A stretch of DNA of 64,000 nt from positions 2,784 to 66,783 of the forward strand of contig CAZMZT010000002.1 in assembly GCA_964571085.1 (NCBI GenBank). Reading direction: 5' to 3'. Every line of letters begins with the position of its first letter. Positions within the stretch are counted from its first letter, which is position 1. The DNA comes from an uncultured Candidatus Saccharibacteria bacterium. Its GTDB lineage: Bacteria > Patescibacteriota > Minisyncoccia > Phycocordibacterales > UBA9973. The translations under genes were made by a program, and so were the position numbers. Shown piece by piece: positions 1,821 through 18,107 of the stretch. The notes under the pieces are model-generated. The model saw only the letters and a program-made list of their open reading frames with translations. It made no database searches and had not been told where the DNA came from.

Positions 1821-1894
1821 TGCCGATTCGTCTAATGGTAGGACACATCCCTCTGGAGGATGGTATTGGGGTTCGAGTCCCTGATCGGCAGCCA
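1821..1894 (+). tRNA. tRNA-Gln (anticodon CUG), 74 nt with encoded CCA
   Basis: Cloverleaf folded by hand: acceptor TGCCGAT/ATCGGCA (7 bp); D-stem GTCT/GGAC; anticodon stem CATCC/GGATG with loop CTCTGGA (U33, CUG at positions 34-36); T-arm TGGGG-TTCGAGT-CCCTG; discriminator G73 plus CCA. The U1:A72 pair and G73 are known tRNA-Gln identity elements. Confidence 0.7.
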
Positions 1895-1906
1895 ACTTGA
1901 GCTAGC
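1895..1906. repeat. 12-bp att-like core ACTTGAGCTAGC immediately 3' of the tRNA. It is repeated exactly at 17039..17050 and is embedded in the 14-bp palindrome TTGAGCTAGCTCAA
   Basis: There is an exact 12-mer match between 1895..1906 and 17039..17050. The flanking 8 nt are also similar (GGCAGCCA vs GCCAGCAA). Confidence 0.55.
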
Positions 1907-2043
1907 TCAAAGATAGCTAGTAAAAGATAACTATACTGTAAATTGCATACCTGCTGAGAGCAGTATTCAGAACAAAAAGCACTTCCGATACGGAGGTGTT
2001 TTTTGTTGTTTTATATTACAACAAAGTATGCTATAATCTTTTT

Positions 2044-2250
2044 ATGAAAGATGATGCCAAAAAGTTGGGAGAAAATCTCAAAAAACTTAGGATCAAAAAA
2101 GATATTAGCCAAATAGAACTCGCCAGAATATTAGGCGTTGATCGATCTTTTGTGAGCAATATCGAAAACGGAAAGAATAATCCGACTCTTTCAACCATTA
2201 CTAGCTTAGCCAAGGCGTTAGGTGTTTCAACTAACGAACTTTTAAAATAA
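2044..2250 (+). CDS. XRE-family HTH regulator positioned like a restriction-modification controller (C) protein
   Basis: 69 aa: ...ISQIELARILGVDRSFVSNIENGKNNPTLSTITSLAKALGV.... Its stop is 1 nt before the start of the helicase/nuclease gene. Confidence 0.65.
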   Translation: MKDDAKKLGENLKKLRIKKDISQIELARILGVDRSFVSNIENGKNNPTLSTITSLAKALGVSTNELLK

Positions 2251-2251
2251 T

Positions 2252-5200
2252 ATGTCGTCATCAATAACAAACACCGGTGATAATACGCTTTCGTCAAACT
2301 TAAAGAGCATTTTGCCTAATTGTGACAAGGTAGATGCTTTGGTTGGATATTTTTACTTTTCTGGTTTTCGAGATTTACATCATGAGCTAAAAGACAAGCA
2401 GATCAGAATTTTAGTAGGAATGGATATCGATAAGAAAATACTTGATAGAGTTTCCACTCTTAAGGATTTAAATTTGGATTCATATACAACTGACACAAAG
2501 ACATCTTCTCGATCTATTGCAAAAGATGACTATATAGAAAACTTTTCAAGAATTTTCAACGATACTGATTTTTTCGATAATGATGAATCACAGCAAGCTT
2601 TTGAGATTTTTTTAGACAAAATTAAGGATGGAAGTTTGCAAATCAAAAAGACTGCACAAGCAAATCACTCAAAGTTCTATATTTTGCATAATAAACCTGA
2701 ATTCTCAACAAATGGAATCACACCAGGAATTGTTATTGAGGGTTCAAGTAATCTAACTTTTTCAGGATTAAAAGGACAAGGAGAACACAACCGTATTTTA
2801 ATGGAAAAACATTATTACGAGGATGATGTTAAACGTTTTGAATCTGTATGGGCTGATCCAGATAACATAGTTATTACTGATCTTGATTCAGCAGAGACAT
2901 TCATAAAAGAAGTAAAAGAAAAGATTTGGCTGTATGCTTTACCAAACCCACTCTTGATGTACTACAAAGTGCTCAATGAATATTTTGCTGTAACTGAAAT
3001 CGAAAACATGAAAACCCCAAAGCATATCACTGGGGGTAAATTTTCTGATCTTAAATACCAAAAGGATGCAATTAATTTAGGGATAGATCGTATTAAGAAA
3101 TTTGGCGGTGTGATTATTGCCGACGTGGTGGGTCTAGGAAAAAGTATTATTGCTTCTGCAATTGCTCACAACCTGGGCTATAAGACTATCATTATTGCAC
3201 CCCCTCACCTTGAAAGTCAGTGGAAAGATTACACAGCAGAGTTTGATTTTAAGGGTCACATCTATTCAACTGGAAAAATTGAAGAAGCATTACAACGACA
3301 CGGTAATGATGAAAGTAAGCTTTTGATAATTCTTGATGAAGCACACAAGCACCGAAATGAGGATACTGATAACTATAAGGTTTTACACAGACTTTGTGCT
3401 GGTAACTATGTAATGGCATTGTCTGCCACTCCTTTCAATAATGATCCAAAAGATATTTACGCACTAATTAAATTATTTAGTACCCCAGGACAATCAACTA
3501 TTAGAACAGTTGAAAATCTAAGTATGTCTTTCCATATGCTTTTCAAGCGATATAAAGCAGTTCGAAGAGATCTACGAAAGAACACAAAAGATGAGGGTGA
3601 TAATTCTGAAATTAAAATCGAACTACATTCAATCGCAGATGAATTGAGAAAAATGATTGAACCTTTGATTATTCGAAGATCTCGTCTTGATCTTGAAGAA
3701 ATAGAAGAATATAAGGATGACTTAAAGGCTCAAGGTGTTGCTTTTGCAAAAGTGAAAGATCCACAGCTTTTGGAATATGATCTTGGTGACATGTTTGATA
3801 TTTACGTTAAGACTCTTGAAAAAATTGCTCCAGAAGATAGAAGCACTAGTTTTATTGGTGCTAGATATAAACCAGCTTCATATATAAATCAAGGATCAAA
3901 ATTCCTTGAAAAACTTATTGAACAAGACGACGAAGACGGTATGTCTGCCGAAGAAAAACTTCAAAGAATTACACAAGCTCAAAGCAACCTTGCTCGATTC
4001 ATGAGAAGACTTCTTGTTCGTCGTTTTGAAAGTTCTGTTGGTGCTTTTAAATTATCATTAAGAAATATGATCACTTCTTCTGAAGCGATGCTTGATTGGT
4101 ATGAGAATCGACAGGAAGTTCCAATATTTAAAAAAGGTGTCTTGCCTGATTCTGAATATTTAAGTGAACTAGATGAAAAAGAATTAGAAGATACATTAAA
4201 TAAACTTGAAGATAAGGGTCTTATTAGAATTCCACTAAGCGAATTACAACCACAATTTGGTGACCACTTGAAACACGATATTGCTCTCCTCAAAGAGATT
4301 GATTCTGAATGGTCTGATAAAAATAGTGATCCAAAGTTTGAATTCTTTAAACAAAAGATTTCTCAATCATTAGCAGAAAATCCAAACAGAAAAATTGTCG
4401 TGTTTACAGAATTTTCTGATACTGCAAACTATGTATTCCAAAAACTACAAAAAGACGGCTTTGATCGTGTATTTAAGTATAGTTCAGAAGATGCTTCAGA
4501 TGAAAATAAGAGAATAATTAGATCAAACTTTGATGCAGGTCTTGAAGAATCAAAACAATCAAATGACTTCGATATTATTATTGCTACAGATGCAATTTCT
4601 GAAGGGTTCAACTTACACCGAGCAGGAGCAATCATCAACTATGATATTCCATACAACCCAACTCGTGTAATTCAACGTGTAGGACGTATTAACCGTATCA
4701 ACAGAAAAGTCTTTGACGAATTGTATATTTACAACTTTTTCCCAACACTTACTGGTGAATTAGAAACAAGAACAAAGGCAATCTCAACTTTGAAAATGGA
4801 TCTTATCCATACTCTTTTAGGTGAAGATACAAAGACTCTTACATCAGAAGAAGATTTGAAAAACTATTTTGCAAAACAGTACAAGGAAGAAAATAGTAAA
4901 AATGAAAGTCTATCCTGGGACGCACCATATCGAAATGCTTGGCTCAAGATTAAAGATGACAAGAAAATAATGGAGCAAATATCTCGAATTCCACACCGTT
5001 CAAGAATTGCTCGAAAAACAAAAGATATCAGTGGCGTAGTCGCTTTTGCAAAGAAAAGTGGAAACTATGTATTTGCTTTTGGAAAGACACCTGAAACTGT
5101 CGAAATCGTATCTCCTCAAGTAGCTCTTCCTTTGTTTAATCAAGTAATTGACTCAGAAGAATCACTACAAACAACAGTAAACTTTGATCCTATTTATAGA

Positions 5201-5545
5201 ATGGCAAAGGAACATATATTCAAAGACAATACAAAGGCCTCTGTTGATGGTGGTCGAAAACAAGATGCACTTAATCGAGTTAAGTTGCTTGGTGAATTAT
5301 ATCCTCAAGCAAAAGATCTTTGTTTGGACATAATAAGAGCAATAAAAGATCTTGACGCTCTTCCAAATGGTGTGCTTAAGGAGATTGTAGAACTTCGTAT
5401 TGATAAAACTAATCCAGAAAAAGCATATCTTGAACTCAAAGAACTTATTCCAAGCAAGTATATTGAAAGTATCTTTGAAACAGCAGATCGAGCTAATGAT
5501 GACGGTAAACTCATTGTTCTGTCTGAAGAATTAATCGCACTATGA
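2252..5545 (+). CDS. PLD-family nuclease domain fused to an SNF2/SF2 helicase (DEAH-box ATPase); the restriction/translocase-like subunit of a two-gene RM-like module
   Basis: The N-terminus has HSKFYILHN...GSSNLTFSG, a PLD-like HxK...GSxN motif. The helicase motifs are: I, VGLGKSIIAS; II, ILDEAHKHRN; III, LSATPFNN; VI, QRVGRINRI. The ORF is 1097 aa and shares a 4-nt overlap (ATGA) with the downstream methyltransferase. Confidence 0.75.
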   Translation: MSSSITNTGDNTLSSNLKSILPNCDKVDALVGYFYFSGFRDLHHELKDKQIRILVGMDIDKKILDRVSTLKDLNLDSYTTDTKTSSRSIAKDDYIENFSRIFNDTDFFDNDESQQAFEIFLDKIKDGSLQIKKTAQANHSKFYILHNKPEFSTNGITPGIVIEGSSNLTFSGLKGQGEHNRILMEKHYYEDDVKRFESVWADPDNIVITDLDSAETFIKEVKEKIWLYALPNPLLMYYKVLNEYFAVTEIENMKTPKHITGGKFSDLKYQKDAINLGIDRIKKFGGVIIADVVGLGKSIIASAIAHNLGYKTIIIAPPHLESQWKDYTAEFDFKGHIYSTGKIEEALQRHGNDESKLLIILDEAHKHRNEDTDNYKVLHRLCAGNYVMALSATPFNNDPKDIYALIKLFSTPGQSTIRTVENLSMSFHMLFKRYKAVRRDLRKNTKDEGDNSEIKIELHSIADELRKMIEPLIIRRSRLDLEEIEEYKDDLKAQGVAFAKVKDPQLLEYDLGDMFDIYVKTLEKIAPEDRSTSFIGARYKPASYINQGSKFLEKLIEQDDEDGMSAEEKLQRITQAQSNLARFMRRLLVRRFESSVGAFKLSLRNMITSSEAMLDWYENRQEVPIFKKGVLPDSEYLSELDEKELEDTLNKLEDKGLIRIPLSELQPQFGDHLKHDIALLKEIDSEWSDKNSDPKFEFFKQKISQSLAENPNRKIVVFTEFSDTANYVFQKLQKDGFDRVFKYSSEDASDENKRIIRSNFDAGLEESKQSNDFDIIIATDAISEGFNLHRAGAIINYDIPYNPTRVIQRVGRINRINRKVFDELYIYNFFPTLTGELETRTKAISTLKMDLIHTLLGEDTKTLTSEEDLKNYFAKQYKEENSKNESLSWDAPYRNAWLKIKDDKKIMEQISRIPHRSRIARKTKDISGVVAFAKKSGNYVFAFGKTPETVEIVSPQVALPLFNQVIDSEESLQTTVNFDPIYRMAKEHIFKDNTKASVDGGRKQDALNRVKLLGELYPQAKDLCLDIIRAIKDLDALPNGVLKEIVELRIDKTNPEKAYLELKELIPSKYIESIFETADRANDDGKLIVLSEELIAL

Positions 5546-8500
5546 AATTAAACGAAAAATACAATCCAGAATCTTTTGTTAATTTCATTCAAGATTTTCT
5601 TCCTGAAGATTTTAAATTAAGAGAAGAAGATATTGTAATTAACAAAGATAGATATAAAGAGATAACCAAAGCAAAGATTTTGGGTTTTTGTGAATCACTT
5701 GATTTGCATGTTTTGGAAATGGATCATACTCATGATAAAGATCCACGAGTAGCTATTGCGACGGATGCTTTTAAAATTTTGGCAGATCACTGGATCCACA
5801 GGGCTTTAGTTATTTTCAAGAGTAATGATTCTGATAATTATCGCTTTTCGTACCTCACGATAACTCTAGATCTCAATGATAAAAATAAAGTTATTAAAAA
5901 ATACTCTAATGCACGACGGTACTCTTTTTATCTAGGAAGTAGTGCAAAAGTAAGAACTCCAGAACAGCAACTTATTAAGAAAGGAAAGATTAAAGATGTA
6001 GATGACTTACTCAACCGTTTCTCCGTTGAGGTTGTAAACAAGCAATTTTATCTAGAAGTTGCAAAATTCTTTGATGAGCTTGTTTCTATAGAAGATCAAA
6101 ATCTTATTCTTCCTGGAGTGTCTGAGACAGATATAAATACTCGCAAGAGCTTTGCTGTTCGCCTTATTGGACGAGCAATGTTTTGTTGGTTCTTAAAGCA
6201 AAAGAAGTCAGATAACGGTCAGCTTGTTCCCGATGAAATCTTATCTTCAAAAGTTGTGTCAGATAATTATTATCATAATGTACTGGAACCTCTGTTCTTT
6301 GGAGTTTTGAATACTAGTATTGATGCTCGTGATATACGAACTGAACTTTTTGATAAAGTACCATACCTAAACGGTGGTCTCTTTAATCCTCAAACTGATG
6401 ATTATTATGAACTCGACCGTGGTACATTTGCTTCGAAATATATCAATACCCTCAAAATAAGTGATAAATGGTTTAAAGAATTTTTTGAGCTTCTTGAAAC
6501 ATACAATTTTACTATTGATGAAAACACGGTATTTGATCAAGAGCTTTCAGTTGATCCTGAAATGCTTGGTCGTATTTTTGAAAATCTCTTGGCTGAAATT
6601 AACCCAGAAACTGGAAGCAGTGAACGAAAGCGAACAGGAAGTTTTTATACTCCAAGACAGATTGTTGAATATATGGTTGATCAGTCTTTGATTGAATACT
6701 TTAAAACCAAAACAGATATTGAAGACAAGAAACTAAACGCCCTGGTTAGTTACGATTTAACTGACGATACTGAGTATCCTCTAGAACAAAAAGAAAAAGA
6801 GCAAATTATTAACGCGATAGAATCACTTAAAATCCTTGATCCTGCTTGTGGGTCAGGAGCATATCCTATCGGAGCACTTCAAAAGATTGTTTATATTCTG
6901 CAACAAGTAGATCCAGAGTGTACTCTTTGGCTTGATAAGAAACTTCAAGGTGTTCCTGATTTATACAAACAAAAGATAATCAACGAAGTAAAGCAAAACC
7001 CATTTGATTACACACGAAAACTGGATGTAATAAAAAACTCTATCTTTGGAGTAGATATTCAACCAATTGCGGTAGATGTATCTCGTCTGCGATGCTTTTT
7101 GACCTTGGTTGTTGAATCTGAAATTGATGATAATAAACCAAATCGTGGGATAGAACCACTTCCAAACTTGGACTTTAAATTCGTATGTGCGAATAGTTTA
7201 GTTCCTGCCCCAGAACAAGAAAAAACACAAGATCATTCATTATTTGGTGATGAGTTTCAAGATAAACTTTCGGTTGCTGTTGATGCCTACTTTTCTTCTT
7301 CAGGTGAAAATAAAAGAAATGCGAATAATGAAATCCATAAACTGATTGATAATAAAGTTAGGGAAAAATTAGCTCATCTAACTGGTCTTGTTTCTTATAA
7401 TGGAGATAAAAAAATGGAAGATATTCTAGCAAAAATGAATAAGAAGCAAATTGATAAGCATTCTAGAATATTAATCTTGTGGTCTAGTTATAAAAATATC
7501 TTCACAAATAAACCAGTGGATTTCTTTGACCCTCATTATTTTTTTCCTAGTGTTAAAAATGGATTCGATATTATTATTGCTAATCCACCATACGTAAGTA
7601 TTAATCAAATATCAAAAAACAAAGATTCCTTTACCTCTTACCTAAAAAGTGGAGATGCATCTTTGGGTAATTATTTAGGCATAAATTTACACAGCACTCC
7701 GATGTCTAGAAAAAAATATCCGCCGAAGCCTAATTTATACGCATTCTTTTTTGTAATGGCAAAAAAATTATGCACTAGTAATGGGATAATATCTTTCATT
7801 GTCCCGAAAGGGGTTCTAACAGCTAAAGATTTAGATACACTCAGATATTTATTCTTATCTAAAATGCAGCTTTTCTTACTTACTTCATTCAAAGAGGGTG
7901 TATTTAATCATAGTGAGACATCTAGTGGAAAGATTGCCACAAGTAGTTTGTTGGTTTTTTTAAAAAATACGACTATCGATAGCAACCATAAAATCAATAT
8001 ATCGAATGTAACAATTGGAGAATTGGGCAACGATGTATCTTCAAAAATTGACTCCAATATCCTTTTAGAGAATATAGATAATTGGAATTTAATATCAATG
8101 TCTGCTGAACAGTTATCTATACTAGCAAAATATAATAAAGGTAAGGATTTAAGTATTTATTATAATCATGAATCGGAAAGAGAGTCGATTCATAAATTTT
8201 ATTTTGATGTAGGTTTTACCCTAGATAAAAATAAAATAATCAAGGAGGAACCAATAAATCATTCTGAATACTATAGACTTTTTGAGTTTAAGGGAATTAA
8301 AACATACCGTCTTGAAACTAAAGATTATTATCCAAAAAATAAAAATTATATTGCACTTACTAAAAATAGCCAAGGTTATATAGTTCTAGATCAACAATAT
8401 AAAATTATTTGGAGTGTTAAGAACCCATCTGCTTTTGGTTTTACGGATGAAGAAGTTATATTTCCAATGGGTAAAGCCGCTATAATTGCTAGTAATGATA

Positions 8501-8814
8501 AAAATGAAATATTATTTTTACTTTCTATTTTAAATTCTAAAATTACTTGGTTTATTTTAACCATATTATTAAAACACGAGGGCGAAAAAGATATGCTAGT
8601 TCCAATTTCGTCAATAAAAAATTATATTAGAATACCAGATATTAAAAAAGAGCAAAAAAATGAAATTATAAAAATTTCTAATGAAATTACACAGTATAAA
8701 ATAAAAAATGATGAAAAGATGTCTGTAGAGCTTGAGAAAAAGATAGACGATTTGATATTAGATTATTTTGGTTATACTGAAGCTGAAAAAGAAATTATAA
8801 GAAGCTCTAACTAA
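5542..8814 (+). CDS. Eco57I-like gamma-class N6-adenine DNA methyltransferase with a long AT-rich C-terminal tail (target-recognition-like; ~1090 aa)
   Basis: The motifs are: X, TGSFYTPRQIVEYMVD; I, ILDPACGSGAYPIGAL; IV, FDIIIANPPYV. The X-I-IV order indicates gamma class. The ~450-aa C-terminal tail sits in very AT-rich DNA. Confidence 0.8.
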   Translation: MKLNEKYNPESFVNFIQDFLPEDFKLREEDIVINKDRYKEITKAKILGFCESLDLHVLEMDHTHDKDPRVAIATDAFKILADHWIHRALVIFKSNDSDNYRFSYLTITLDLNDKNKVIKKYSNARRYSFYLGSSAKVRTPEQQLIKKGKIKDVDDLLNRFSVEVVNKQFYLEVAKFFDELVSIEDQNLILPGVSETDINTRKSFAVRLIGRAMFCWFLKQKKSDNGQLVPDEILSSKVVSDNYYHNVLEPLFFGVLNTSIDARDIRTELFDKVPYLNGGLFNPQTDDYYELDRGTFASKYINTLKISDKWFKEFFELLETYNFTIDENTVFDQELSVDPEMLGRIFENLLAEINPETGSSERKRTGSFYTPRQIVEYMVDQSLIEYFKTKTDIEDKKLNALVSYDLTDDTEYPLEQKEKEQIINAIESLKILDPACGSGAYPIGALQKIVYILQQVDPECTLWLDKKLQGVPDLYKQKIINEVKQNPFDYTRKLDVIKNSIFGVDIQPIAVDVSRLRCFLTLVVESEIDDNKPNRGIEPLPNLDFKFVCANSLVPAPEQEKTQDHSLFGDEFQDKLSVAVDAYFSSSGENKRNANNEIHKLIDNKVREKLAHLTGLVSYNGDKKMEDILAKMNKKQIDKHSRILILWSSYKNIFTNKPVDFFDPHYFFPSVKNGFDIIIANPPYVSINQISKNKDSFTSYLKSGDASLGNYLGINLHSTPMSRKKYPPKPNLYAFFFVMAKKLCTSNGIISFIVPKGVLTAKDLDTLRYLFLSKMQLFLLTSFKEGVFNHSETSSGKIATSSLLVFLKNTTIDSNHKINISNVTIGELGNDVSSKIDSNILLENIDNWNLISMSAEQLSILAKYNKGKDLSIYYNHESERESIHKFYFDVGFTLDKNKIIKEEPINHSEYYRLFEFKGIKTYRLETKDYYPKNKNYIALTKNSQGYIVLDQQYKIIWSVKNPSAFGFTDEEVIFPMGKAAIIASNDKNEILFLLSILNSKITWFILTILLKHEGEKDMLVPISSIKNYIRIPDIKKEQKNEIIKISNEITQYKIKNDEKMSVELEKKIDDLILDYFGYTEAEKEIIRSSN

Positions 8815-10126
8815 GAGATATTATTTTATTCTTCAATATAATTTTACTCTTAAAACAAGTTAGCAATTCTCGCTTCTCTTCAACTAATCCGTCTTTTAAA
8901 ATAAATTTGGCGTAGTCTCTGATGTCTACGTCTTTTATTTGTATCTGTTGTTTCGTATTCAAGACAGATTGATTAAATCTTTTTATTCTTTCCACCTCAT
9001 ATTTAATCTTTTCTCTCATGCCAATCTCATTGATATTTACTTGATCAATAAGCTTTTCGAATTGCTGTATTAGTTCGATTTCGTTTATATAACCACACTT
9101 ACAGTTCTTATCTTTCGATCTGGTGCATCCATAGTAGATGTGTCTATTTACTGATCCGTCTTTTAGCTTTTTAAACTTTTCATCTGCACATATACCAGAT
9201 CCACAAAGCCCACAGGTCATCATTTTTGTAAAAGCAAATTCTTTTGGTTCTTGAGTTCGTAATGCTTGGCTTTTAACTTGTTCTTGAACCAATTCAAAAA
9301 GTTCTTTATTGATTATTGGTTCATGTCTACCTGTATAAAAGTTTCCGCTTTTTCGTGGATATTCAAAAACTCCATAATAAAATGGATTTTGAAGTATGAG
9401 ATAAATATTACTAAGGGTGAGACCCTTGTTTCCACTTCTAGTTTTAAAATTCAGATCAAATTTAAGCCAGTGAAAAAGCTTTCTACCAGACCACTTTTCG
9501 TAGGCTACTTTTTCAAACATTTGTTTTACTATTGGTGCTCGTTCTGGATCTATGACTACTTCGCATTTTTTGTCCATTCGCTTTTCATTGAGATACCCAA
9601 CAACAGCAGGACCTGGGCGAAGTCCCATTTCACATCTTGTTCGCAATCCTCGTTTTACGTTAATACTTTTATTATCGTTCTCGAGTTTAGCTTGTGAACA
9701 TAGAATCATCAAAAGAAATTTCTCGTTTGGAGAATTTTTGAAATGTTGCCCATATGTTCTAATCTCAAGAATTTTTGTCTCGTCCATAAGATCAACTACT
9801 GAACCAAGATCACCAGCGTTTCTTGATAGACGATCTGGTGCCCAAGTCAGTATTCCGTTATATCTACCTCGACGTATATCCTCCAAGACTTCTCTAAATA
9901 CTGGTCGTTGTCCAGATTCTTTAGCTGAATGAGATTCACGCCTAATATCTACGACGGTTAAGCCGTCACGATCGGCTATTGCAAGCATTTCTTTAACCTG
10001 GGATTCGATAGACAGGGCTTGCTTTTCGTCTGATTCGGTTGATTTTCGAGCATACAGGACATACCGAATCTTGGTTTTTGGTACCTCTGTTCTAACCCCC
10101 AAATTGCTTATATATTGCGTCTCCAT
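8807..10126 (-). CDS. Large serine recombinase (integrase)
   Basis: The N-terminus IRYVLYARKSTESDEKQALSIESQ is a resolvase-type catalytic motif. The size (439 aa), the recombinase domain and a Cys-rich zinc ribbon (CGLCG...C...C..C) follow. Confidence 0.8.
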   Translation of the reverse strand: METQYISNLGVRTEVPKTKIRYVLYARKSTESDEKQALSIESQVKEMLAIADRDGLTVVDIRRESHSAKESGQRPVFREVLEDIRRGRYNGILTWAPDRLSRNAGDLGSVVDLMDETKILEIRTYGQHFKNSPNEKFLLMILCSQAKLENDNKSINVKRGLRTRCEMGLRPGPAVVGYLNEKRMDKKCEVVIDPERAPIVKQMFEKVAYEKWSGRKLFHWLKFDLNFKTRSGNKGLTLSNIYLILQNPFYYGVFEYPRKSGNFYTGRHEPIINKELFELVQEQVKSQALRTQEPKEFAFTKMMTCGLCGSGICADEKFKKLKDGSVNRHIYYGCTRSKDKNCKCGYINEIELIQQFEKLIDQVNINEIGMREKIKYEVERIKRFNQSVLNTKQQIQIKDVDIRDYAKFILKDGLVEEKRELLTCFKSKIILKNKIISLS

Positions 10127-10198
10127 ATTATATTAATGACGCAACTTGAGCGTTTTGCTAAGTCTATGCAGAACTAGTGAAATATTGCATACTCGCGA

Positions 10199-11695
10199 CT
10201 ACTTTTTTTGATCCATATCTACATAATCTCTAAAGTACAGAGGTTCATCATCTCCCATCCAGTACATAAGCCATGTAGATTCTCCAGAGTGTTTATCCAT
10301 CGTTGAGTTAATCAAGAGAGAAAATGCGTCTGCTAAGTCGTCATGTTTTTCTACTCCAAATCCAACAAGTTGCTCGATAAGTCTTTCACACCCTTGTCTC
10401 GGGAATAAAATTTTTGCTGATTTTATTGCAGTTGAAGTAAGGGCAAGTCGTGTCCGCTTGTCTCCTTTGGGTTTGATTGCAGTTGCCTTAACTCCATGAT
10501 GTTCAAGCATTTGCGGTAAAGCTTCCTGATATGCCACGCTTTCAACAAATAACTCATCAGAACTTCTTGTAAGTAAAGTATTGCGAATATCTTTCATGAG
10601 ATCCACCTGTGCAGGAAAATTAAGTTTCTTTGCAATAGGGTTAGGTAGGATGTAGATTCGCAATTTTTCACGGCGTGAATATATGTGAGCGAATACCACG
10701 GCAGTATCATCGGCAGTTTCTGACGCTGATATAGCAAGATCAACTCCTGCATAAGTACCACGATATCCTCGATGTTTTTCTCCTGGTAGTTCGTCATAAA
10801 ATTGAATCCATTCAGGGTAAATAACCTGATCGTCACTTGGAATGATGCGGAGTAAGTATTCCCGTTGCCATGAAATTTCACTAGTAACTTTTAGTTTCTC
10901 GTCTTCTAGATCTTTTTCTGTTGCATATTTTCCAGACCACAAGCACACACCATTTCTATCAATCAATGGATACTCTTTGAATATTCCTTTTGCTTTACCT
11001 TTAGCAATCTCGTCTTTGATACGCATTAAGAGCGAGTCCTCATGAAGTAAGTTTCCAACAATAATTAGTCGAGTATTTCTATCTCCAGCAGGGATAACTT
11101 CACCACGGAGCCAGTTATAGGTCTTTTCTCGACCCTCACGAGTTTTAGCTGATTGCACATCTTCAACATCGTCACAGATTATTAAGTCTGGGCGGTGTTC
11201 ATTGTGGCGAATACCACGAATACTTTGCTCTGCAGAAGCCACGGTGATTCTTGCTCCATGCTTTTTGAATACAAGAGAGAATGAACCCCATTCATCACTC
11301 TCTTCTTGGAATGGTCCAAGATCCTTTTTGAGAACATCGTTACCCTCAAGTTCTGTGCGGATATTCATCATGTGTTGTTTTGCCTGTGCTCGTGTTTGGC
11401 AGAAAATGATACAGAATTTCTTTTGTTGTTTTCCAAGGATTGCCCAGATTGGGTAAGCAGTCGTCACCATTGTTGATTTTCCAGAACCTCGAAATGCGAC
11501 CACATACAAGTTTTCAGTAGTGCTTTTTTCTAGGTTATGAATAATCTCTTTTTGAAAGTCTGCTGTTTCGTACTTCACATAGTGTGCATAGTAGAAGTGG
11601 AAGAAATACAAGAAACTGTCTTTTGTAATCGATGTTCGCACTGAACGATCTTTTATCATCGTATTAACCAGTGCTTTTGGAATTATTTTAGTCAT
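10199..11695 (-). CDS. Phage terminase large subunit (ATPase + nuclease)
   Basis: Walker A is at ...VAFRGSGKSTMV.... The C-terminal acidic nuclease-like region is ...GVDLAIS...DDTAVVFAH.... The size (498 aa) and its position after a small-terminase-like gene fit a large terminase. Confidence 0.6.
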   Translation of the reverse strand: MTKIIPKALVNTMIKDRSVRTSITKDSFLYFFHFYYAHYVKYETADFQKEIIHNLEKSTTENLYVVAFRGSGKSTMVTTAYPIWAILGKQQKKFCIIFCQTRAQAKQHMMNIRTELEGNDVLKKDLGPFQEESDEWGSFSLVFKKHGARITVASAEQSIRGIRHNEHRPDLIICDDVEDVQSAKTREGREKTYNWLRGEVIPAGDRNTRLIIVGNLLHEDSLLMRIKDEIAKGKAKGIFKEYPLIDRNGVCLWSGKYATEKDLEDEKLKVTSEISWQREYLLRIIPSDDQVIYPEWIQFYDELPGEKHRGYRGTYAGVDLAISASETADDTAVVFAHIYSRREKLRIYILPNPIAKKLNFPAQVDLMKDIRNTLLTRSSDELFVESVAYQEALPQMLEHHGVKATAIKPKGDKRTRLALTSTAIKSAKILFPRQGCERLIEQLVGFGVEKHDDLADAFSLLINSTMDKHSGESTWLMYWMGDDEPLYFRDYVDMDQKK

Positions 11696-11697
11696 AA

Positions 11698-12105
11698 TTA
11701 TTTTTTACGATTAATGTTTTTAATAGATTTCGACTTGGTAATTTTTGCTAGCTTGAGAGCTTGCTTTACAATTTTTGCCTGTGAGGGTGTCAGCTCCTCA
11801 TTGTCGTCTTTAGTGGTAATCTCAAGTTTGTTTTTGTAATTATCATTTCGATGACGAAGCCAGAAACTAATCGCAGGATAGTTTTTCTCTTTGATAAGGG
11901 TCAGCAGTTGGCTTTCACTCATGTCATTTACCAATGCGACACCCTCAGAAAGTGCAATATCCATTTTCTTGAGAAAATCTTTGTCTTCTTTTCGCCACCG
12001 ATAGATACTGTTTCGAGATAATCCTGTCTTCTCACATGCAACCTGAACAATTGGTACTTTTCTCAATTCTTCTAAGAACTGATCCTGAAATTTATTCTTT
12101 TTCAT
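11698..12105 (-). CDS. Terminase small subunit-like HTH protein
   Basis: 135 aa with an N-terminal HTH (...TGLSRNSIYRWRKED...). It sits immediately upstream of and is co-oriented with the large terminase. Confidence 0.45.
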   Translation of the reverse strand: MKKNKFQDQFLEELRKVPIVQVACEKTGLSRNSIYRWRKEDKDFLKKMDIALSEGVALVNDMSESQLLTLIKEKNYPAISFWLRHRNDNYKNKLEITTKDDNEELTPSQAKIVKQALKLAKITKSKSIKNINRKK

Positions 12106-13369
12106 AGAAGTTATTAATTACTTGAGCTTTGTGACCAGTCAGCTTTTCATATCGACGAATTGCTAAATCACAAAACACAGGTTCTATCTCTAGGGAATAG
12201 ACCTTTCGACCTAATTGTTCCGCACAGATCATGGTGCTAGCAGATCCAGAGAAGGCGTCAAAAATGATGTCTCCTGGCTTGGTGCAACGCATAATAAACT
12301 TATGGTGCAGTTCAGGATTTTTACTTGTCGCATGTTCCATTTGATTTGCAGGTAATCGTTTAGTTGCCCAAATGTTCGAGATATCTTCCAGAAGTTGATT
12401 ACCAGTTCCATAATCTTTGTTTTGAACTTCATTGAGATTCTTTACCAAATCAGAAATATACGGAGACCCCGTTGTTCCATATACGCAATATTCAAGGCAT
12501 TTATTAAACGCTACGGCAGGTGTCGGCGAAGCATTGTTTTTAATCCAGACATTGAGCCGTCTGTTTTTAACTCCATGTTCCATATAGAGTGTTTGAAATA
12601 CCCACACCCACGCTTCATCGCACCAGAAAGCCACATGTGCATCTTTCGTCGATATAGCGAGTGAAGATTTAAGAACCTTGCGGATAAATTCTTTGTATTC
12701 TTCAGGTGATTGATTATCGTCAAATGTACCTCCGTAGTTGGATTTATTACCAACCCCTTTGTCATAGGAGAGCCCGATATTAAAAGGTGGGTCATTGTAT
12801 ATGGCGGTAGCTTTATCATTTCCAAATAGCTTAGTAACCGCATTCATATCGGTTGAACTAGCACACAATAACTTGTGACCACCCATAACAATAAGATCAC
12901 CAGGCTTTGTTTGTGGTGTTTTGATTTTCTTTAATTCTTTTTCAACATCGAATTTGTCATCCTTGGTATCTTTTTCTTCGTCCCAAAACTTAACTAATTC
13001 TTTTTCGTTGAATCCAGCGAACTGCAAAAGCTCCAGGTCAAAAGACTTAAGCTTTTCAAAATCCCATTCGCCATCGTTGATATTGCTTTCAATAGCAATC
13101 TTGCGACGCTCGTCATCTGATAGTTTGCGATCAGGAATTAATACGTTTACCTGCCTGATACCAAGCTGTATCAAAGCAGTTTTTCTTTGATTGCCTGAAA
13201 TAATCGTATTGTCCGTATCAATAACGATTACACTATGAAAACCACTTTGAATGATTTTCTCTTTTAATTTTTCCATAGCGACCCGTGAGATTTTTCTTGG
13301 GTTTTCTTTCCAAGGGAGTAGGTCTTTGACCTCTCGAACTCCTGTTGTCCATGAAAGTTTTTTATTCAT
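12092..13369 (-). CDS. ParB-like nuclease domain fused to a beta-class DNA (N6A/N4C) methyltransferase
   Basis: The N-terminal ParB/Srx-like region is ...VIVIDTDNTIISGNQRKTALIQLG.... MTase motif IV (IYNDPPFN) precedes motif I (DIIFDAFSGSASTMICAEQLGRK). This is the beta-class order and is typical of phage orphan methyltransferases next to terminase genes. Confidence 0.7.
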   Translation of the reverse strand: MNKKLSWTTGVREVKDLLPWKENPRKISRVAMEKLKEKIIQSGFHSVIVIDTDNTIISGNQRKTALIQLGIRQVNVLIPDRKLSDDERRKIAIESNINDGEWDFEKLKSFDLELLQFAGFNEKELVKFWDEEKDTKDDKFDVEKELKKIKTPQTKPGDLIVMGGHKLLCASSTDMNAVTKLFGNDKATAIYNDPPFNIGLSYDKGVGNKSNYGGTFDDNQSPEEYKEFIRKVLKSSLAISTKDAHVAFWCDEAWVWVFQTLYMEHGVKNRRLNVWIKNNASPTPAVAFNKCLEYCVYGTTGSPYISDLVKNLNEVQNKDYGTGNQLLEDISNIWATKRLPANQMEHATSKNPELHHKFIMRCTKPGDIIFDAFSGSASTMICAEQLGRKVYSLEIEPVFCDLAIRRYEKLTGHKAQVINNFYEKE

Positions 13370-13542
13370 AGAGTTTTTATTTGATTACTTATAAATTTGT
13401 AGATGACTAATCTACTAACTCTATGAAATCAAAAAGGTACATGGTCATGTAATTGTCATAAAATTGAGTTGCATAAAGAAAAAACGCCTATTTAAAGGCG
13501 ATTTTTCAAAGTTATCCACTCAACTTGGTGTCAACTTAGGAA

Positions 13543-14175
13543 TTATTCTTTTTCTATGTGGATTTTTGGATTGATACGATACCCAGATCCTTTCTTTCCT
13601 TGAATAAGTTTTGTCTTCTTTGGGAGTCTCAAAGTATTTATTGCGTAATCATTAAAAGTCTGCACCATTTTTGCTACCGCTTGTGATGAAGGGCAGGATA
13701 GTATTCTCTGTAGGTCTTTTGTTTGTACATATGCATCTCGATCAAGTAGTGTTTCAAGTAATTTCTTTCTTTTTCCATTTTCAGTAAGGTCATATGAAAA
13801 TAGTTTGTCGCCCAAGTGTCTGTCGAGCGATCCATTATCTCTATCGTAGATAATCACATTACTGTCTTGGCTTGAAGATAGAAGTCGCTTGTGATTTTTA
13901 TTTAATTCTTGAAGTTCTTCTAAGATGTCATATTCAACAGGGCGACGGAATACTATTTCAGGATATTCTACTGGTTCAAAAAGTTTTACTTGTTCACGGA
14001 CTCGATTCATTTGCTCAATAATCGGCTGAGCGACTTTTCTTACATTCTCAATCATTTCTGCATGCCTTTTGCCTAATTCTCGAAACTGAGAAATCTGCCC
14101 CTCGCTTAAAGTAGGGGGATGTATTTTTGCCACTAGTTCACCAACGGTTATTGGTTTTTTCTGCTCATCTGCCAT
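13543..14175 (-). CDS. Hypothetical DNA-binding protein (C-terminal winged-helix-like)
   Basis: 210 aa. The C-terminus ...QGKKGSGYRINP resembles the end of a winged HTH. It is divergent from the LexA-like repressor gene. Confidence 0.3.
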   Translation of the reverse strand: MADEQKKPITVGELVAKIHPPTLSEGQISQFRELGKRHAEMIENVRKVAQPIIEQMNRVREQVKLFEPVEYPEIVFRRPVEYDILEELQELNKNHKRLLSSSQDSNVIIYDRDNGSLDRHLGDKLFSYDLTENGKRKKLLETLLDRDAYVQTKDLQRILSCPSSQAVAKMVQTFNDYAINTLRLPKKTKLIQGKKGSGYRINPKIHIEKE

Positions 14176-14195
14176 GTAGTTATGATAGCAAATAC

Positions 14196-14224
14196 TTGCT
14201 TTTTTGTATAGAGTAATTTATACT
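14196..14224 (+). promoter_or_regulatory. Sigma70-like promoter for the LexA-like repressor gene (TTGCTT, 17-nt spacer, TATACT)
   Basis: The hexamers and spacing are read from the sequence. The ATG at 14234 follows 10 nt after the -10 element. Confidence 0.4.
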
Positions 14225-14233
14225 ATTTATACC

Positions 14234-14851
14234 ATGACTAATAACCTTAGTGACAAAGATAAAAAAGCGTTTGCCCTTATCCGTAACAAGATTGTTCATT
14301 ATGGCAAAAGCCCTACGCTTAGTGAGATTAATGAGGTTACAGGTGGAGCTTCTCCACGATCTGCGAGCCTTGTAATTAATCGATTAATTGACGCAGGACT
14401 TATAAAGAAAATCGGACGACAACTTATCCTTACTGGATCGCAGAAAACAGCTTCAATAAGTACTATTGATGTTCCTTTGGTTGGTGCTGTGACTTGTGGT
14501 ACTCCTGTTCTTGCCGAAGAAAATATCCAAGCCTTAATTCCTGTATCAACAGGACTAGCTAAAAAGGGTTCAAAATATTTTCTTTTGCGTGCAATTGGAG
14601 ACTCGATGAATCTTGCAGGAATTAATAGCGGTGATCTGCTTCTGATTCGACAGCAAGACACAGCAGAAGACAATGACAAAGTTGTTGCTCTAATAAATGA
14701 CGAAGCAACCGTCAAAGTGTTCAAGAAAGCAAATGGTGCTGTTGTACTTCAACCGAAATCAACAAACAAAGACCATAAGCCGATTATATTAACAGATAAC
14801 TGCATCATACAAGGAGTAGTCGTTGCTGTGCTTCCTGGTGATCTATATTAA
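14234..14851 (+). CDS. LexA/CI-like repressor (N-terminal wHTH + C-terminal S24 peptidase)
   Basis: The C-terminal region ...LRAIGDSMNLAGINSGDLLLIR...VKVFKK... carries the S24 Ser (GDSM) and Lys dyad. The N-terminus is a LexA-type DNA-binding domain. Confidence 0.7.
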   Translation: MTNNLSDKDKKAFALIRNKIVHYGKSPTLSEINEVTGGASPRSASLVINRLIDAGLIKKIGRQLILTGSQKTASISTIDVPLVGAVTCGTPVLAEENIQALIPVSTGLAKKGSKYFLLRAIGDSMNLAGINSGDLLLIRQQDTAEDNDKVVALINDEATVKVFKKANGAVVLQPKSTNKDHKPIILTDNCIIQGVVVAVLPGDLY

Positions 14852-14855
14852 ATTT

Positions 14856-15368
14856 ATGTCTTATAAAAATAAAACATACGTAGCTTTTGATGGAGATAAT
14901 GATATGAAATATTATCGTTTAATGACTGCATGGAAAGAACATGATCATATAGAATTTGATTTTTTAAATGCTCATGATTTAAATAGCGCAAGAGATACAA
15001 GTACCGAAGAATCAATAAAATCACAACTTAGAATACGAATGGCAAATTCAAAGCAAATGCTTTTATTAGTTGGAGATAATACAAAATATTTAAGAAAGTT
15101 TTTGCCTTGGGAGATAGAACTTGCAAGAAAGAAGGATATACCAATTATTATTGTTAATTTAAATAACAAAAAAGGTTACGACGACAATCTTTGTCCATCA
15201 GCTATTAAAGATTGGAAATATACAATTTCAGTACCTTTTAAACTAAAGGCAATACAATATGCTTTGGATCATTTTCCAGACAACTATCATAAATGGAAAA
15301 ACCACCCTGATTATCAAGACCACAGGTATATCTATACAGATTCAACCTATAACCAACTAGGCATATGA
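14856..15368 (+). CDS. DUF1863/MTH538 TIR-like domain protein (ThsB-like), paralog 1
   Basis: The N-terminus MSYKNKTYVAFDGDNDMKYY, plus ...NSKQMLLLVGDNTKYL...WEIELA...IPIIIVNL..., matches the TIR-like PF08937 pattern. It is paralogous to 16215..16757. Confidence 0.55.
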   Translation: MSYKNKTYVAFDGDNDMKYYRLMTAWKEHDHIEFDFLNAHDLNSARDTSTEESIKSQLRIRMANSKQMLLLVGDNTKYLRKFLPWEIELARKKDIPIIIVNLNNKKGYDDNLCPSAIKDWKYTISVPFKLKAIQYALDHFPDNYHKWKNHPDYQDHRYIYTDSTYNQLGI

Positions 15369-16210
15369 TGAATAGTATTTTTTCAAAAAGAATGGCAATT
15401 AAATTAAGTGTTAATTTTTTTGTCTCACTAGGTGTAATAAGTTCGATAATTCAAATTATTACTTCAAGTTATCCAGACCTTATTTCTAATTATAAATGGA
15501 AAGGATGGTTCCTGTCTGTTTTTATTTGTTTGGTCTTTGCTTTTATTAGAGCATGGCCAAAGAGAAGTTTCTCTGAAACTTTTTCAAATCCTGACGTTAG
15601 AATTGGCATTAAGATTGGAAATATATTTGATCAATCTGGTCATCTTGTTATTGGTTTTAGCGACACTTTCGATACAGAAATTGGTGATGTAGTAAGTAAA
15701 GATAGTATGCAAGGTCAGTTTTTAATTTCTATGTATGAAAATAATCAAAATAAACTTGATACTGATCTTGATGCATTACTTAAGAATGAGGAATCTGAAG
15801 AAGATACTACAAAGACGCGTGGTAAAAACAAGAGATATAAGATTGGTACAGTTGTAGCATTGTCTGGTTTAAATAGAAAATTCTTTTGCTGTGCATATAG
15901 TCGTATGGGATCTGATCTTAAGGCAACATCTGACATAAATAACTTGTGGTCTTCATTACAAAATCTCTGGACTAAAATAAGAGTAGAGGGAGAGCAAAAA
16001 ACTATAGTGATGCCAGTTATTGGCACTAACTTAGCTAGAATTCCTGGTATCTCATTTAAATTGCCAATAAATCTTATTCTTCTTTCATTTATTATTAATT
16101 CAAGAGTGGAACCAATATCGAAAGAGTTAGTACTTATTATACGTGAAGAAGATAAGGAGAAAGTTAATTTATTGGAAATTCAAGATTTTCTAAAATCTCT
16201 TCATAACTAA
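15365..16210 (+). CDS. Membrane protein with two N-terminal TM helices and a C-terminal Macro-like (ADP-ribose-binding-like) domain; ThsA-like effector candidate
   Basis: There are two hydrophobic helices in the first ~65 aa. The C-terminal region ...TIVMPVIGTNLARIPG... resembles the Macro-domain IAFPxISTGxxGxP motif. It overlaps the upstream gene by 4 nt. Confidence 0.45.
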   Translation: MMNSIFSKRMAIKLSVNFFVSLGVISSIIQIITSSYPDLISNYKWKGWFLSVFICLVFAFIRAWPKRSFSETFSNPDVRIGIKIGNIFDQSGHLVIGFSDTFDTEIGDVVSKDSMQGQFLISMYENNQNKLDTDLDALLKNEESEEDTTKTRGKNKRYKIGTVVALSGLNRKFFCCAYSRMGSDLKATSDINNLWSSLQNLWTKIRVEGEQKTIVMPVIGTNLARIPGISFKLPINLILLSFIINSRVEPISKELVLIIREEDKEKVNLLEIQDFLKSLHN

Positions 16211-16214
16211 TCTT

Positions 16215-16757
16215 ATGGCTTACAGAAGTGGAACATACATAGCTTTTCATGCAGACGGAGAAAGTAATCCAACTGCCTCTGATATGAAATACTACAACAC
16301 ATTAAAAATGTGGAAAGTTAGAGATGATGACTTTAGTTTTGTTAATAGTCACGAGAAAACAGGAGCTGTAAGAGACTCAAGTAAAAAAGATACTCTACGG
16401 AGATCTTTAATATCGAGAATGAATAATTCTAAAAACCTATTATTAATAATAGGCTCAACAACAAAAAATGATACAGACTGGGTTCCTTTCGAAATTAATT
16501 ACGCTGTAGAAACTTGTAATATTCCAATTATAGTTGCCTATACGGGGTACAATAAAATAATGGCTCCGTCTGAGCTTTCTCATTTGTGGCCAGCCGAATT
16601 GGCTAAGGCAATTAAAAACAAAACAGTCGGTATTATTCATGTTCCGTTTAAAAAAGAACCCATAGCAGATGCAATCTCTCAATTTGATATGAATAATCAT
16701 CCTAAAACATCCCTTAATTATTACACTGCAGAAACTTATATTAATTGGGGTTTATAA
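16215..16757 (+). CDS. DUF1863/MTH538 TIR-like domain protein (ThsB-like), paralog 2
   Basis: The motifs GTYIAFHADGE...MKYY, ...NSKNLLLIIGSTTKND...FEINYA...IPIIVAY are collinear with those of 14856..15368. Confidence 0.55.
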   Translation: MAYRSGTYIAFHADGESNPTASDMKYYNTLKMWKVRDDDFSFVNSHEKTGAVRDSSKKDTLRRSLISRMNNSKNLLLIIGSTTKNDTDWVPFEINYAVETCNIPIIVAYTGYNKIMAPSELSHLWPAELAKAIKNKTVGIIHVPFKKEPIADAISQFDMNNHPKTSLNYYTAETYINWGL

Positions 16758-16988
16758 ATAAAATTACACTAATCTGTAACTTTTATACTCAAACCTGTGT
16801 CACTTTTGTCACTTTTTATGAACAAGGAAGATAAAAGAAATCCTAAAAATTGGACTAAAGAAGAGACCGATAGAGTGGTCGCAGTATTTCAATGGCTATT
16901 GGAGCAAGATAAAAAGCAGAATCCAGATCGGTATAAAAAACCTACTGCTCAAAGACCGTCGAAATGATAGAATAAACTTATTAAAAAT

Positions 16989-17050
16989 GTCCTTACGGGG
17001 CTTGACCCACCACGGTTCTGGCTCAAGGACGCCAGCAAACTTGAGCTAGC
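16989..17050. repeat. Element-end repeat R1 (~50-bp family repeat plus the 12-bp att-like core ACTTGAGCTAGC at 17039..17050)
   Basis: GTCCTTACGGGGCTTGACCCACCACGGTTCTGGCTCAAGGACGCCAGCAAACTTGAGCTAGC differs from R2 at about 9 of 48 positions. The last 12 nt are identical to the tRNA 3' flank. Confidence 0.6.
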
Positions 17051-17129
17051 ACGAGATGCTTATAAATTGAGCTTTCGAATTAGCAAAAGATCTATACAGT
17101 TATTGAAGAAGCCGTAGGCTAATCCAGAC

Positions 17130-17165
17130 AAAAAACACTTTCAAAAATGAAAGTGTTTTTTGTTG
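17130..17165. terminator. Rho-independent, bidirectional-type terminator (AACACTTTCAAAAATGAAAGTGTT followed by T-run)
   Basis: A perfect 9-bp stem is flanked by an A-run and a T-run. Confidence 0.55.
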
Positions 17166-17208
17166 TTGACTTCTAAAACCATATACCCTATACTATAGGG
17201 TATATGGT
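17166..17208 (+). promoter_or_regulatory. Promoter (TTGACT, 17-nt spacer, TATACT) overlapped by a perfect 31-bp palindrome ACCATATACCCTATACTATAGGGTATATGGT; CsoR-type operator
   Basis: The palindrome spans 17178..17208. It contains ATACCC...GGGTAT half-sites like known CsoR operators, and it covers the -10 element and the csoR start codon. Confidence 0.6.
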
Positions 17209-17491
17209 AAAACAAACACACAATCATGTTCACAAGCACGGTGAGCCAAACACAAAGGCTCGCAAAGTTATTAATATGGCAATAGGAAGTGTTGCTAAGA
17301 TTCCTGAGATGGTCGATGATGGACGATACTGCCCTGAAATTATTCAGCAAATTGATAGTGTCGTAGGTCTTTTACATAGTGCACGAAAAGAATTACTAAA
17401 GGGTCACTTAGAGTCTTGCCTTGCTGAAAGATTAAAGACCGACAAGGAGGGTTCAATCAAAGAATTGCTAAAAATCTACAACATGCAGTAG
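17204..17491 (+). CDS. csoR: CsoR/RcnR-family metal-sensing transcriptional repressor
   Basis: 95 aa with a His-rich N-terminus. ...RYCPEIIQQIDSVVGLLHSARKELLKGHLESC carries the C-H-C metal-ligand signature of the family. Confidence 0.7.
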   Translation: MVKQTHNHVHKHGEPNTKARKVINMAIGSVAKIPEMVDDGRYCPEIIQQIDSVVGLLHSARKELLKGHLESCLAERLKTDKEGSIKELLKIYNMQ

Positions 17492-17529
17492 ATTTTTAGT
17501 GTTTTATTATTAAATTTATATAAAAAATT

Positions 17530-18093: not shown

Positions 18094-18107
18094 TATAAAA
18101 TCCCTAT

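Follow-up and report, generated by a model that had tools for sequence, protein, structure and literature searches.

A probable type II Thoeris operon with two ThsB genes on a mobile element of a Paceibacteria-type bacterium

The operon and the described Thoeris systems

In type I Thoeris a TIR sensor (ThsB) makes an NAD-derived signal, 3′cADPR (3′ cyclic ADP-ribose), which activates a separate SIR2-SLOG effector (ThsA), and an operon may hold several ThsB genes. The type II system of Bacillus amyloliquefaciens Y2 consists of one ThsB and a ThsA with transmembrane (TM) helices and a Macro domain, and its signal is histidine-ADP-ribose (His-ADPR; PDB 8R66, the Macro domain of the B. amyloliquefaciens effector, BaThsA, with the signal bound; Sabonis et al., 10.1101/2024.01.03.573942). 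The structurally characterised system of Escherichia coli CFT073 combines a TM-Macro effector, EcThsA, with two sensors, EcThsB1 and EcThsB2 (PDB 8V6Q, 8V6R, 8V6T; Shi et al. 2024, PMC11204291). Here we describe three adjacent genes, thsB-a, thsA and thsB-b, in a 64,000-nucleotide stretch of bacterial DNA (the window), which encode, with a probability of about 0.88, a canonical Thoeris system of type II (TM-Macro) that acts by abortive infection and has two sensors. A type II Thoeris system had been proposed for this locus by an earlier inspection of the letters (the sequence-only reading), and every test suggested there that was run came out in favour of it.

The data show the domains and the fold, the residues of the active site and some of those of the ligand pocket, the tight packing of the operon, its maintenance by purifying selection and a gene order conserved across genomes, as well as a host from the Candidate Phyla Radiation (CPR) and carriage on a mobile element. 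All features of type II Thoeris that can be read from sequence were found except full identity of the ligand pocket, which is kept in part and changed in part. The three open reading frames (ORFs; Table 1) are intact, co-oriented and packed as the sequence-only reading had described. A 4-nt gap separates the stop of a LexA-like gene (14851) from the start of thsB-a (14856), thsB-a and thsA share an ATGA overlap of 4 nt (15365-15368), and another 4-nt gap lies between the thsA stop (16210) and the thsB-b start (16215). PADLOC models covered all three proteins in full length: PDLC00429 for ThsB-a (5.9e-70, positions 1-167/167), PDLC00415 for ThsA (1.3e-82, end to end) and PDLC00421 for ThsB-b (1.1e-68, end to end). 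The profile E-values, which range from 1e-17 to 1e-82, exclude a chance match.

Table 1. Coordinates of the Thoeris operon, its functional sites and the carrying element
Feature	Position	Strand	Description
thsB-a	14856..15368	+	170 aa; TIR-like ThsB, EcThsB2-like lineage
ThsB-a active-site Tyr8	14877-14879	+	alignment to EcThsB2 Y8
ThsB-a Glu86	15111-15113	+	alignment to EcThsB2 E89
thsA	15365..16210	+	281-aa TM-Macro effector
ThsA TM helix 1	~15386-15469 (aa 8-35)	+	AlphaFold helix
ThsA TM helix 2	~15494-15553 (aa 44-63)	+	AlphaFold helix
ThsA-type Macro domain	15602-16144 (aa 80-260)	+	profile/structure match
ThsA ligand/phosphate loop (...GTNLAR..., TIVMPVIGTNLARIPG)	16001-16048 (aa 213-228)	+	alignment to solved ThsA Macro domains
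thsB-b	16215..16757	+	180 aa; TIR-like ThsB, second lineage (3HYN/9UV0-like)
ThsB-b Tyr8	16236-16238	+	alignment to EcThsB2 Y8
ThsB-b Glu93	16491-16493	+	alignment to EcThsB2 E89
LexA-type self-cleaving repressor gene	14234..14851	+	205 aa; 4 nt upstream of thsB-a; Peptidase_S24 8.1e-27 + LexA_DNA_bind
Divergent intergenic region, 58 bp	14176..14233	.	between 210-aa gene (minus) and LexA-like gene; promoter/operator site inferred from gene layout
Mobile element, ~15.1 kb	1907..17037	.	Thoeris operon at right end; homology block on other contigs
tRNA-Gln(CTG)	1821-1894		3′ end abuts the element's left junction
13-bp repeat AACTTGAGCTAGC, left copy	1894..1906	+	begins at last base of tRNA-Gln(CTG)
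13-bp repeat AACTTGAGCTAGC, right copy	17038..17050	+	at the element's right junction

The Macro assignment of the middle protein had been regarded as the weak point of the proposal. It turned out to be the strongest profile match of the module: the ThsA-type profile PF20016 (ThsA_Macro) was matched over 183 of its 183 positions with an E-value of 3e-54. What did not hold was the expected family, since the generic Macro profile PF01661 reached only E 0.28 (11.6 bits, with the threshold at 22), and a Pfam profile search with E up to 1 gave no SIR2 or SLOG match. With PF01661 below threshold, no SLOG match and a specific PF20016 match, a generic Macro or SLOG identity of ThsA was ruled out. The two N-terminal TM helices, also foreseen, were seen in Kyte-Doolittle hydropathy (19-aa windows; values >1.6 at about residues 10-34 and 45-65) and as helices in an AlphaFold2 model. 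In this model (built on 35 homologues; mean predicted local distance difference test score 89.6, predicted TM-score 0.82) two long N-terminal helices are followed by an alpha/beta/alpha Macro core. Sequence matches of ThsA in the PDB were 8V6Q (EcThsA), 9UUZ, 8R66 and 8V6S (PcThsA), with E-values from 1e-16 to 3e-13. In a Foldseek search of the PDB the top eight matches were all crystal structures of ThsA Macro domains (8V6Q, 8V6R, 8R66 and 8V6S, representing EcThsA, BaThsA and PcThsA; E 1e-15 to 6e-13, target TM-score 0.80-0.86). Ordinary Macro domains (O. iheyensis MacroD, PARP14, macroH2A) ranked behind, at about 1e-7 to 1e-5.

The flanking proteins belong to PF08937 as predicted (ThsB-a 5.9e-17, ThsB-b 1.4e-17) and are paralogous, with 34% identity and a BLASTP E-value of 8e-25. 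Of the sequence motifs given for the pair, NSK.[ML]LL[LI][VI]G..TK, [WF]EI..A and IPII[IV] each matched both proteins unchanged, whereas the first motif, TY[VI]AF..D......MKYY, gave no match with its fixed 6-residue spacer; the actual spacers are 2 and 9 residues long. Kyte-Doolittle windows revealed no membrane-grade segment in either ThsB. The best PDB sequence match of ThsB-a was 8V6T (EcThsB2; 2.4e-37, full length), and its sequence places it in the EcThsB2-like subfamily 9 of Shi et al. 2024. ThsB-b matched 3HYN (1.8e-20) and 9UV0, an entry named 'ThsB' (2e-17).

In EcThsB2 the active-site Tyr (Y8) hydrogen-bonds the catalytic Glu (E89), and this Tyr has been reported only for ThsBs of TM-Macro systems (PMC11204291). 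Both residues have counterparts in ThsB-a and ThsB-b. Among the non-redundant ThsB orthologues of related loci the Tyr was kept in 31/31 and the Glu in 33/33.

How the locus compares with the described systems can be stated gene by gene. Like the Y2 effector, the window ThsA has two TM helices and a ThsA-type Macro domain (Foldseek E 1e-14, target TM-score 0.82) and keeps the equivalents of S194, R240 and Q135, and ThsB-b resembles the ThsB of 9UV0, which is a candidate for the Y2 sensor. That 9UV0 is the Y2 protein is probable from its companion 9UUZ, whose score is almost equal to that of 8R66 over an alignment of the same 202 residues; a literature search on 9UV0 and 9UUZ returned nothing relevant. 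Unlike Y2, with its single ThsB, the window has two ThsB genes, the Macro domains are only about 23% identical, Asn, Gln and Arg stand in ThsA for D100, N133 and Y277, and the operon lies in a CPR host, where a mobile element carries it 3′ of a LexA-type repressor gene. The CFT073 system shares with the window the combination of one TM-Macro effector and two ThsBs. EcThsA is the best structural match of the window ThsA, and ThsB-a, in addition to its full-length match to EcThsB2, shares with it the Tyr8/Glu site and the Tyr-rich C-terminal tail. In contrast, ThsB-b is a short TIR protein of the Tyr/Glu type, unlike the PH-domain-fused EcThsB1, and in ThsA the loop is GTNLAR instead of GSGITR, with Arg for H259 and Asp for K262. 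With type I Thoeris the window system shares the general scheme of a TIR sensor, a signal and a separate effector, but its ThsA has no SIR2 or SLOG domain, and the effector would target the membrane and not act as an NADase.

The claim that such a system is notable as novel was overstated. TM-Macro Thoeris with two ThsBs is already known from CFT073 (PMC11204291), and a PADLOC- or Pfam-based pipeline would annotate the locus automatically. Modest novelty lies in the host lineage, in the carriage by a mobile element that has a swappable slot, and in the variant pocket residues; the locus leaves the understanding of how Thoeris works unchanged.

The CPR-like nature of the genome was borne out by the relatives of its methionyl-tRNA synthetase (MetRS) and by the cluster members of the Thoeris proteins. 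MetRS, one of the housekeeping proteins of the window together with isoleucyl- (IleRS) and arginyl-tRNA synthetase (ArgRS) and serine hydroxymethyltransferase (SHMT), has its nearest named relatives (77-79% identical) in Candidatus Paceibacteria, Paceibacterota and Nomurabacteria. The mates of the Thoeris proteins in 90%-identity clusters bear the same names, one of them on a 705-kb Nomurabacteria contig. By these similarities the host is a Paceibacteria/Nomurabacteria-type CPR bacterium. CPR phages and defences are little known. A defensome survey described few defence systems per CPR genome, at a high density per Mb (PMC12259885), and we found no paper in the searchable literature that discusses Thoeris in CPR. 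The window places the TM-Macro branch of TIR signalling immunity in the ultra-small genomes of Paceibacteria, under purifying selection and on a mobile element.

Homologues of the three genes co-localise in many genomes. The ThsA alignment was scanned against one genome per GTDB species, which returned 69 loci, and gene order was scored by ORF and hidden Markov model (HMM) analysis of 76 loci in all (designated L with a number where needed). The order ThsB-ThsA-ThsB (B-A-B) was found in 15, B-A in 9 and A-B in 1. The B-A-B hosts include Patescibacteria, Paceibacterota and metagenome-assembled genomes (MAGs) labelled 'Saccharibacteria', and also two Pseudomonadales-labelled MAGs with a ThsA identity of only 38-42%. 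In every B-A-B locus a protein of the ThsB-a type is encoded upstream and one of the ThsB-b type downstream, even where ThsA identity falls to 38-42%. Bracketing of the effector is thus an ancient, conserved layout that did not arise by local duplication. The description of the ThsBs as 'duplicated, diverged' thus stands as far as divergence and bracketing are concerned; a recent tandem duplication is ruled out by the 34% identity, the different best PDB and PADLOC models and the positional orthology in distant loci. Identical ThsA proteins occur on 9 contigs, each time between the same two ThsB genes. In many Streptomyces and cyanobacterial homologues of the ThsA subclade no ThsB was detected with an HMM derived from ThsB-a/b, and a scan of IMG/VR found no close ThsA relatives.

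All three Thoeris genes are under strong purifying selection. The ratio of nonsynonymous to synonymous substitution rates (dN/dS; Nei-Gojobori), calculated against the orthologues in L009, L010, L011 and L014 with dS near or beyond saturation, was 0.008-0.13 across the three genes (ThsB-a 0.008-0.04, ThsB-b 0.04-0.09). In the 680-kb contig from which L001/L077 derive, fragmentation into many small ORFs has affected the adjacent helicase and methylase genes and left the Thoeris genes intact.

Ligand pocket and signal

Published ligand contacts were placed on an alignment of 75 ThsA sequences, with residue roles taken from the two structural studies (10.1101/2024.01.03.573942, PMC11204291). Three pocket residues of BaThsA, S194, R240 and Q135, are kept in the window ThsA as S179, R225 and Q118. 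In BaThsA R240 contacts the histidine carboxylate of the signal (10.1101/2024.01.03.573942). The structural residue D100 of EcThsA corresponds to D103 of the window protein and its K154 to K154; both are conserved. The segment that the sequence-only reading had taken for the phosphate-binding loop, TIVMPVIGTNLARIPG (ThsA 213-228), does align with GSGITR, which forms the phosphate/ligand loop in solved ThsA Macro domains. Judged by this alignment, the pocket is clearly homologous to those of the characterised effectors, yet not identical.

Several observations weigh against a canonical type II system at this locus. The Asp that contacts adenine N6 (D100 in BaThsA, D83 in EcThsA) is replaced by N86, the distal-ribose Asn (N133/N114) by Q116, and the stacking Tyr/His (Y277/H259) by R260. 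The GSGITR loop has become GTNLAR, with the changes T221 (for Ser), N222 (for Gly) and A224 (for Thr). Because of these substitutions His-ADPR is no more than a presumptive ligand. Among 72 ThsA homologues Q116 was present in 72/72 and R225 in 71/72; N86 and R260 were each found in 31/72. For EcThsB2, which among solved proteins is closest to ThsB-a, no NADase activity was seen in vitro (PMC11204291). Divergence is faster in ThsA than in the ThsBs, the reverse of the usual pattern of a variable sensor and a conserved effector: in L014 ThsA is 55% identical to the window protein and the ThsBs 83-84%. Comparison with L014, L017, L019 and L020 localised the fastest change to the TM region (24-32% identity, against 44-64% for the Macro domain), but in L014 the Macro domain (64%) was also less conserved than the ThsBs. 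Finally, a scan for promoters and terminators around the operon found none above shuffled background.

The mechanism that we infer, including membrane killing and protection against phage, was drawn by homology from the Y2 and CFT073 systems (10.1101/2024.01.03.573942; PMC11204291). Each ThsB would be a stand-alone TIR-like enzyme, autoinhibited until a phage cue is detected. Upon activation its Tyr/Glu site would turn NAD+ into a conjugate of ADP-ribose (ADPR). This product would most likely be His-ADPR or an imidazole-ADPR closely related to it, and would bind to the cytoplasmic Macro domain of ThsA. ThsA is then expected to oligomerise, and clustering of its two-helix membrane anchors would breach the membrane; the infected cell would die or arrest before phage release. 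The two ThsBs would feed one effector and probably widen the range of phages sensed, a proposal based on their identity of only 34% and their different lineages.

The alternative that survives best keeps the type II architecture and changes the signal. The ligand of the ThsA subclade may be some ADPR conjugate different from His-ADPR, and the products of the two ThsB lineages may differ. The substitutions N86, Q116, T221, N222, A224 and R260 would fit such a change, and there is a precedent in EcThsB1, which performs base exchange with histamine and not with histidine; signal diversity among TM-Macro systems had already been suspected (PMC11204291). On the other hand, the equivalent of the Arg that holds the histidine carboxylate is nearly invariant (R225, 71/72), S179 and Q118 are conserved, and Asn and Arg could still hydrogen-bond to adenine or stack on it. 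ThsB-b is related to ThsBs of the 9UV0/3HYN type, and the Tyr/Glu site, for which a link to His-ADPR production has been drawn (PMC11204291), is present in both ThsBs. We regard a different signal as unlikely. Compared with this alternative, canonical type II Thoeris signalling is the preferred reading, and the window ThsA supplies natural, testable variants of the His-ADPR pocket.

The repressor gene and the mobile element

The gene directly upstream of thsB-a had been taken for the CI/LexA-like repressor of a mobile element, and its domains, PHROG matches, alignment to LexA and the comparison of neighbourhoods supported this. The protein matched E. coli LexA in full length (1.6e-20), has Cys-Gly at the position of the LexA Ala84-Gly85 cleavage site, and the catalytic Ser (GDSM) and Lys (TVK) are aligned. 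Cys-Gly is also the cleavage site of UmuD. A PHROG search returned repressor and CI-like matches. The possibility that the gene is an integral Thoeris component was considered, since it lies directly upstream of thsB-a in 11 loci, including the distant L014, L016, L017 and L020. In L010, L011 and L013, however, the repressor is replaced by a 30-33% identical paralogue at a distance of ~250-310 nt, and the Thoeris genes are still 74-96% identical. A LexA-like match was absent in the B-A loci L024, L047, L070 and L071. Because of this replacement, these missing matches and the different cargo that follows the repressor gene in a sister element (L082, see below), a role as a Thoeris part was rejected; by sequence comparison the gene is the immunity repressor of the mobile element.

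The 4-nt junctions leave no room for a promoter, and in the simplest reading thsB-a, thsA and thsB-b would be co-transcribed with the repressor gene from the divergent intergenic region at 14176-14233. Judged from the gene layout, this transcript probably begins with the LexA-like gene, and in its integrated state the element would thereby supply its host with immunity. An operator search in the 58-bp region found only weak inverted repeats, not above shuffled background. The 210-aa protein encoded divergently (13543-14175, minus) had no significant counterpart in Pfam, PHROG or PADLOC. Conserved in the element family (identities of 85% in L009 and 31% in L019), it may be a Cro-/antirepressor-type or replication-side early gene of the element.

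The element extends over ~15.1 kb and carries, in order, genes for a helix-turn-helix (HTH) protein, an HKD(PLD)-SNF2 helicase, a type IIG-like methyltransferase, a large serine recombinase, TerL, a TerS/AlpA-like protein, a ParB-methyltransferase, the 210-aa protein and the LexA-like repressor, followed by the Thoeris operon. PHROG matches identified the serine integrase (phrog_95, 8e-62), TerL (phrog_38, 5e-78) and the TerS-like protein (1e-9), and domain and PHROG searches found no capsid or tail genes within 1907-17037. The element may be a phage-satellite-like element of CPR bacteria. The same block, 96.7-99.8% identical, is present with different flanks on other contigs, including L077, L078 and L079, with limits at 1793, 1811 or 1906 on the left and at 17034, 17049 or 17054 on the right. 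A near-identical block with different flanks means that the element has recently been mobile.

The 13-bp repeat AACTTGAGCTAGC at the two junctions had 2 matches, against 0.15 expected by chance. Its interpretation as a classical duplication of an attachment (att) core is only partly supported, as the right junctions elsewhere are related but non-identical after ...GACGCCAGC. This variability fits the short crossover site of a serine recombinase, and the predicted junction of the excised circular form is ...GACGCCAGC NN ...CTCAAAGATAGC.

Defence cargo and repressor-linked exclusion operons are known from P2/P4 hotspots, from the immune cargo of phage-inducible chromosomal islands (PICI) and from lambda cI-rexAB. 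Like these, the window has an immune operon in an exchangeable slot of a small integrative element, co-oriented and directly 3′ of the immunity repressor gene. Unlike those hotspots, the window element belongs to a family from CPR with a large serine recombinase, TerL and a TerS-like protein and lacks capsid genes. The exchange is seen in the sister element L082 (IMGVR_UViG_3300009666_001272), in which TerL is 97% identical and the DNA homology to the window stops exactly at the LexA-like stop codon. In L082 (3582-5560) the slot after the LexA-like gene is occupied by genes for two small ThsB_TIR-like proteins of 123 and 135 aa and for a 189-aa PF24838 '8xMP' octameric membrane protein (1.1e-45). 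Since this cargo replaces thsB-thsA-thsB, the position after the repressor gene is a swappable defence slot, and the window element is an example of such a slot on a CPR mobile element. The TIR and 8xMP set of L082 is a candidate for a different TIR-signalling system; a literature search on '8xMP' found nothing relevant. Between TerL and the recombinase L082 also encodes a reverse transcriptase, a PycTM-like protein and a type III restriction-modification system.

The carriage of the operon raises the question of which partner benefits. It could serve mainly the mobile element, in exclusion, in post-segregational maintenance or in attack on competing phages and elements, switched by the LexA-type repressor. 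In favour of this, the element that ends in the operon has been mobile recently (96.7-99.8% identity with different flanks), only 4 nt separate the operon from the repressor gene, and the sister element holds another set of TIR and membrane proteins in exactly the same slot. Against this, L017 and L020, which lie outside the element family, have different genes upstream of the LexA-like gene and still keep the LexA-like gene with B-A-B. In addition, the molecular mechanism would be the same Thoeris signalling and only the beneficiary would differ. We consider a mainly element-serving role improbable. A decaying remnant, or a Macro protein that is an ordinary ADP-ribosyl hydrolase or DarG-like antitoxin merely lying beside TIR-like genes, is scarcely credible: the weak PF01661 match (E 0.28) would favour it, but the ORFs are intact with dN/dS of 0.01-0.13, PF01661 is far below threshold against 3e-54 for PF20016, no DarT-like partner is present, and the window ThsA superposes best on solved ThsA Macro domains, which are non-catalytic binders (PMC11204291).

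The results can be combined into a wider picture, which we offer tentatively and hold to be a good deal less than an even bet. Thoeris would be the exchangeable immune cargo of an undescribed family of capsid-less, terminase-encoding, phage-satellite-like integrative elements in Paceibacteria-type CPR bacteria. Its transcription as part of the operon of a self-cleaving LexA-type repressor would tie TIR immunity to the SOS switch of the element; sister elements would swap in a set of two TIR proteins and an octameric membrane protein, and the ThsA subclade with N86, Q116 and R260 would perhaps sense a signal other than His-ADPR.

Other cargo and neighbouring genes

The element carries a second defence-like cargo at 2044-8814, which consists of the HTH gene, the gene for the 1097-aa HKD(PLD)-SNF2 helicase and that for the 1090-aa Eco57I/type IIG-like methyltransferase. 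The helicase matched the PADLOC model 'HKD+Snf2' (3e-32) and a DrmD-like model (9e-34), and the methyltransferase match had an E-value of 1.7e-66.

A copper-resistance island lies directly 3′ of the Thoeris element (17051-22660) and encodes a CsoR-like repressor, a DUF305 protein, a CopA P-type ATPase and an HMA-DsbD_2 protein. It ends in a shortened serine-recombinase ORF (21783-22259), whose DNA is 77% identical to part of the recombinase gene of the element, and its right end (22568-22660) is ~80% identical to the right end of the Thoeris element. The island has the appearance of a further element, related but degenerate, that inserted in tandem. Identical copies of CopA occur on 32 contigs.

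Just outside the islands, at 23901-24440, a 179-aa protein is encoded, which gave weak matches to zeta-toxin and AAA_33 kinase profiles (E about 1e-4). In the IleRS of the window (1166 aa, 46506-50006) the IleRS match is split in two by a histidine-phosphatase/phosphoglycerate-mutase-like domain, an insertion that covers roughly residues 512-666.

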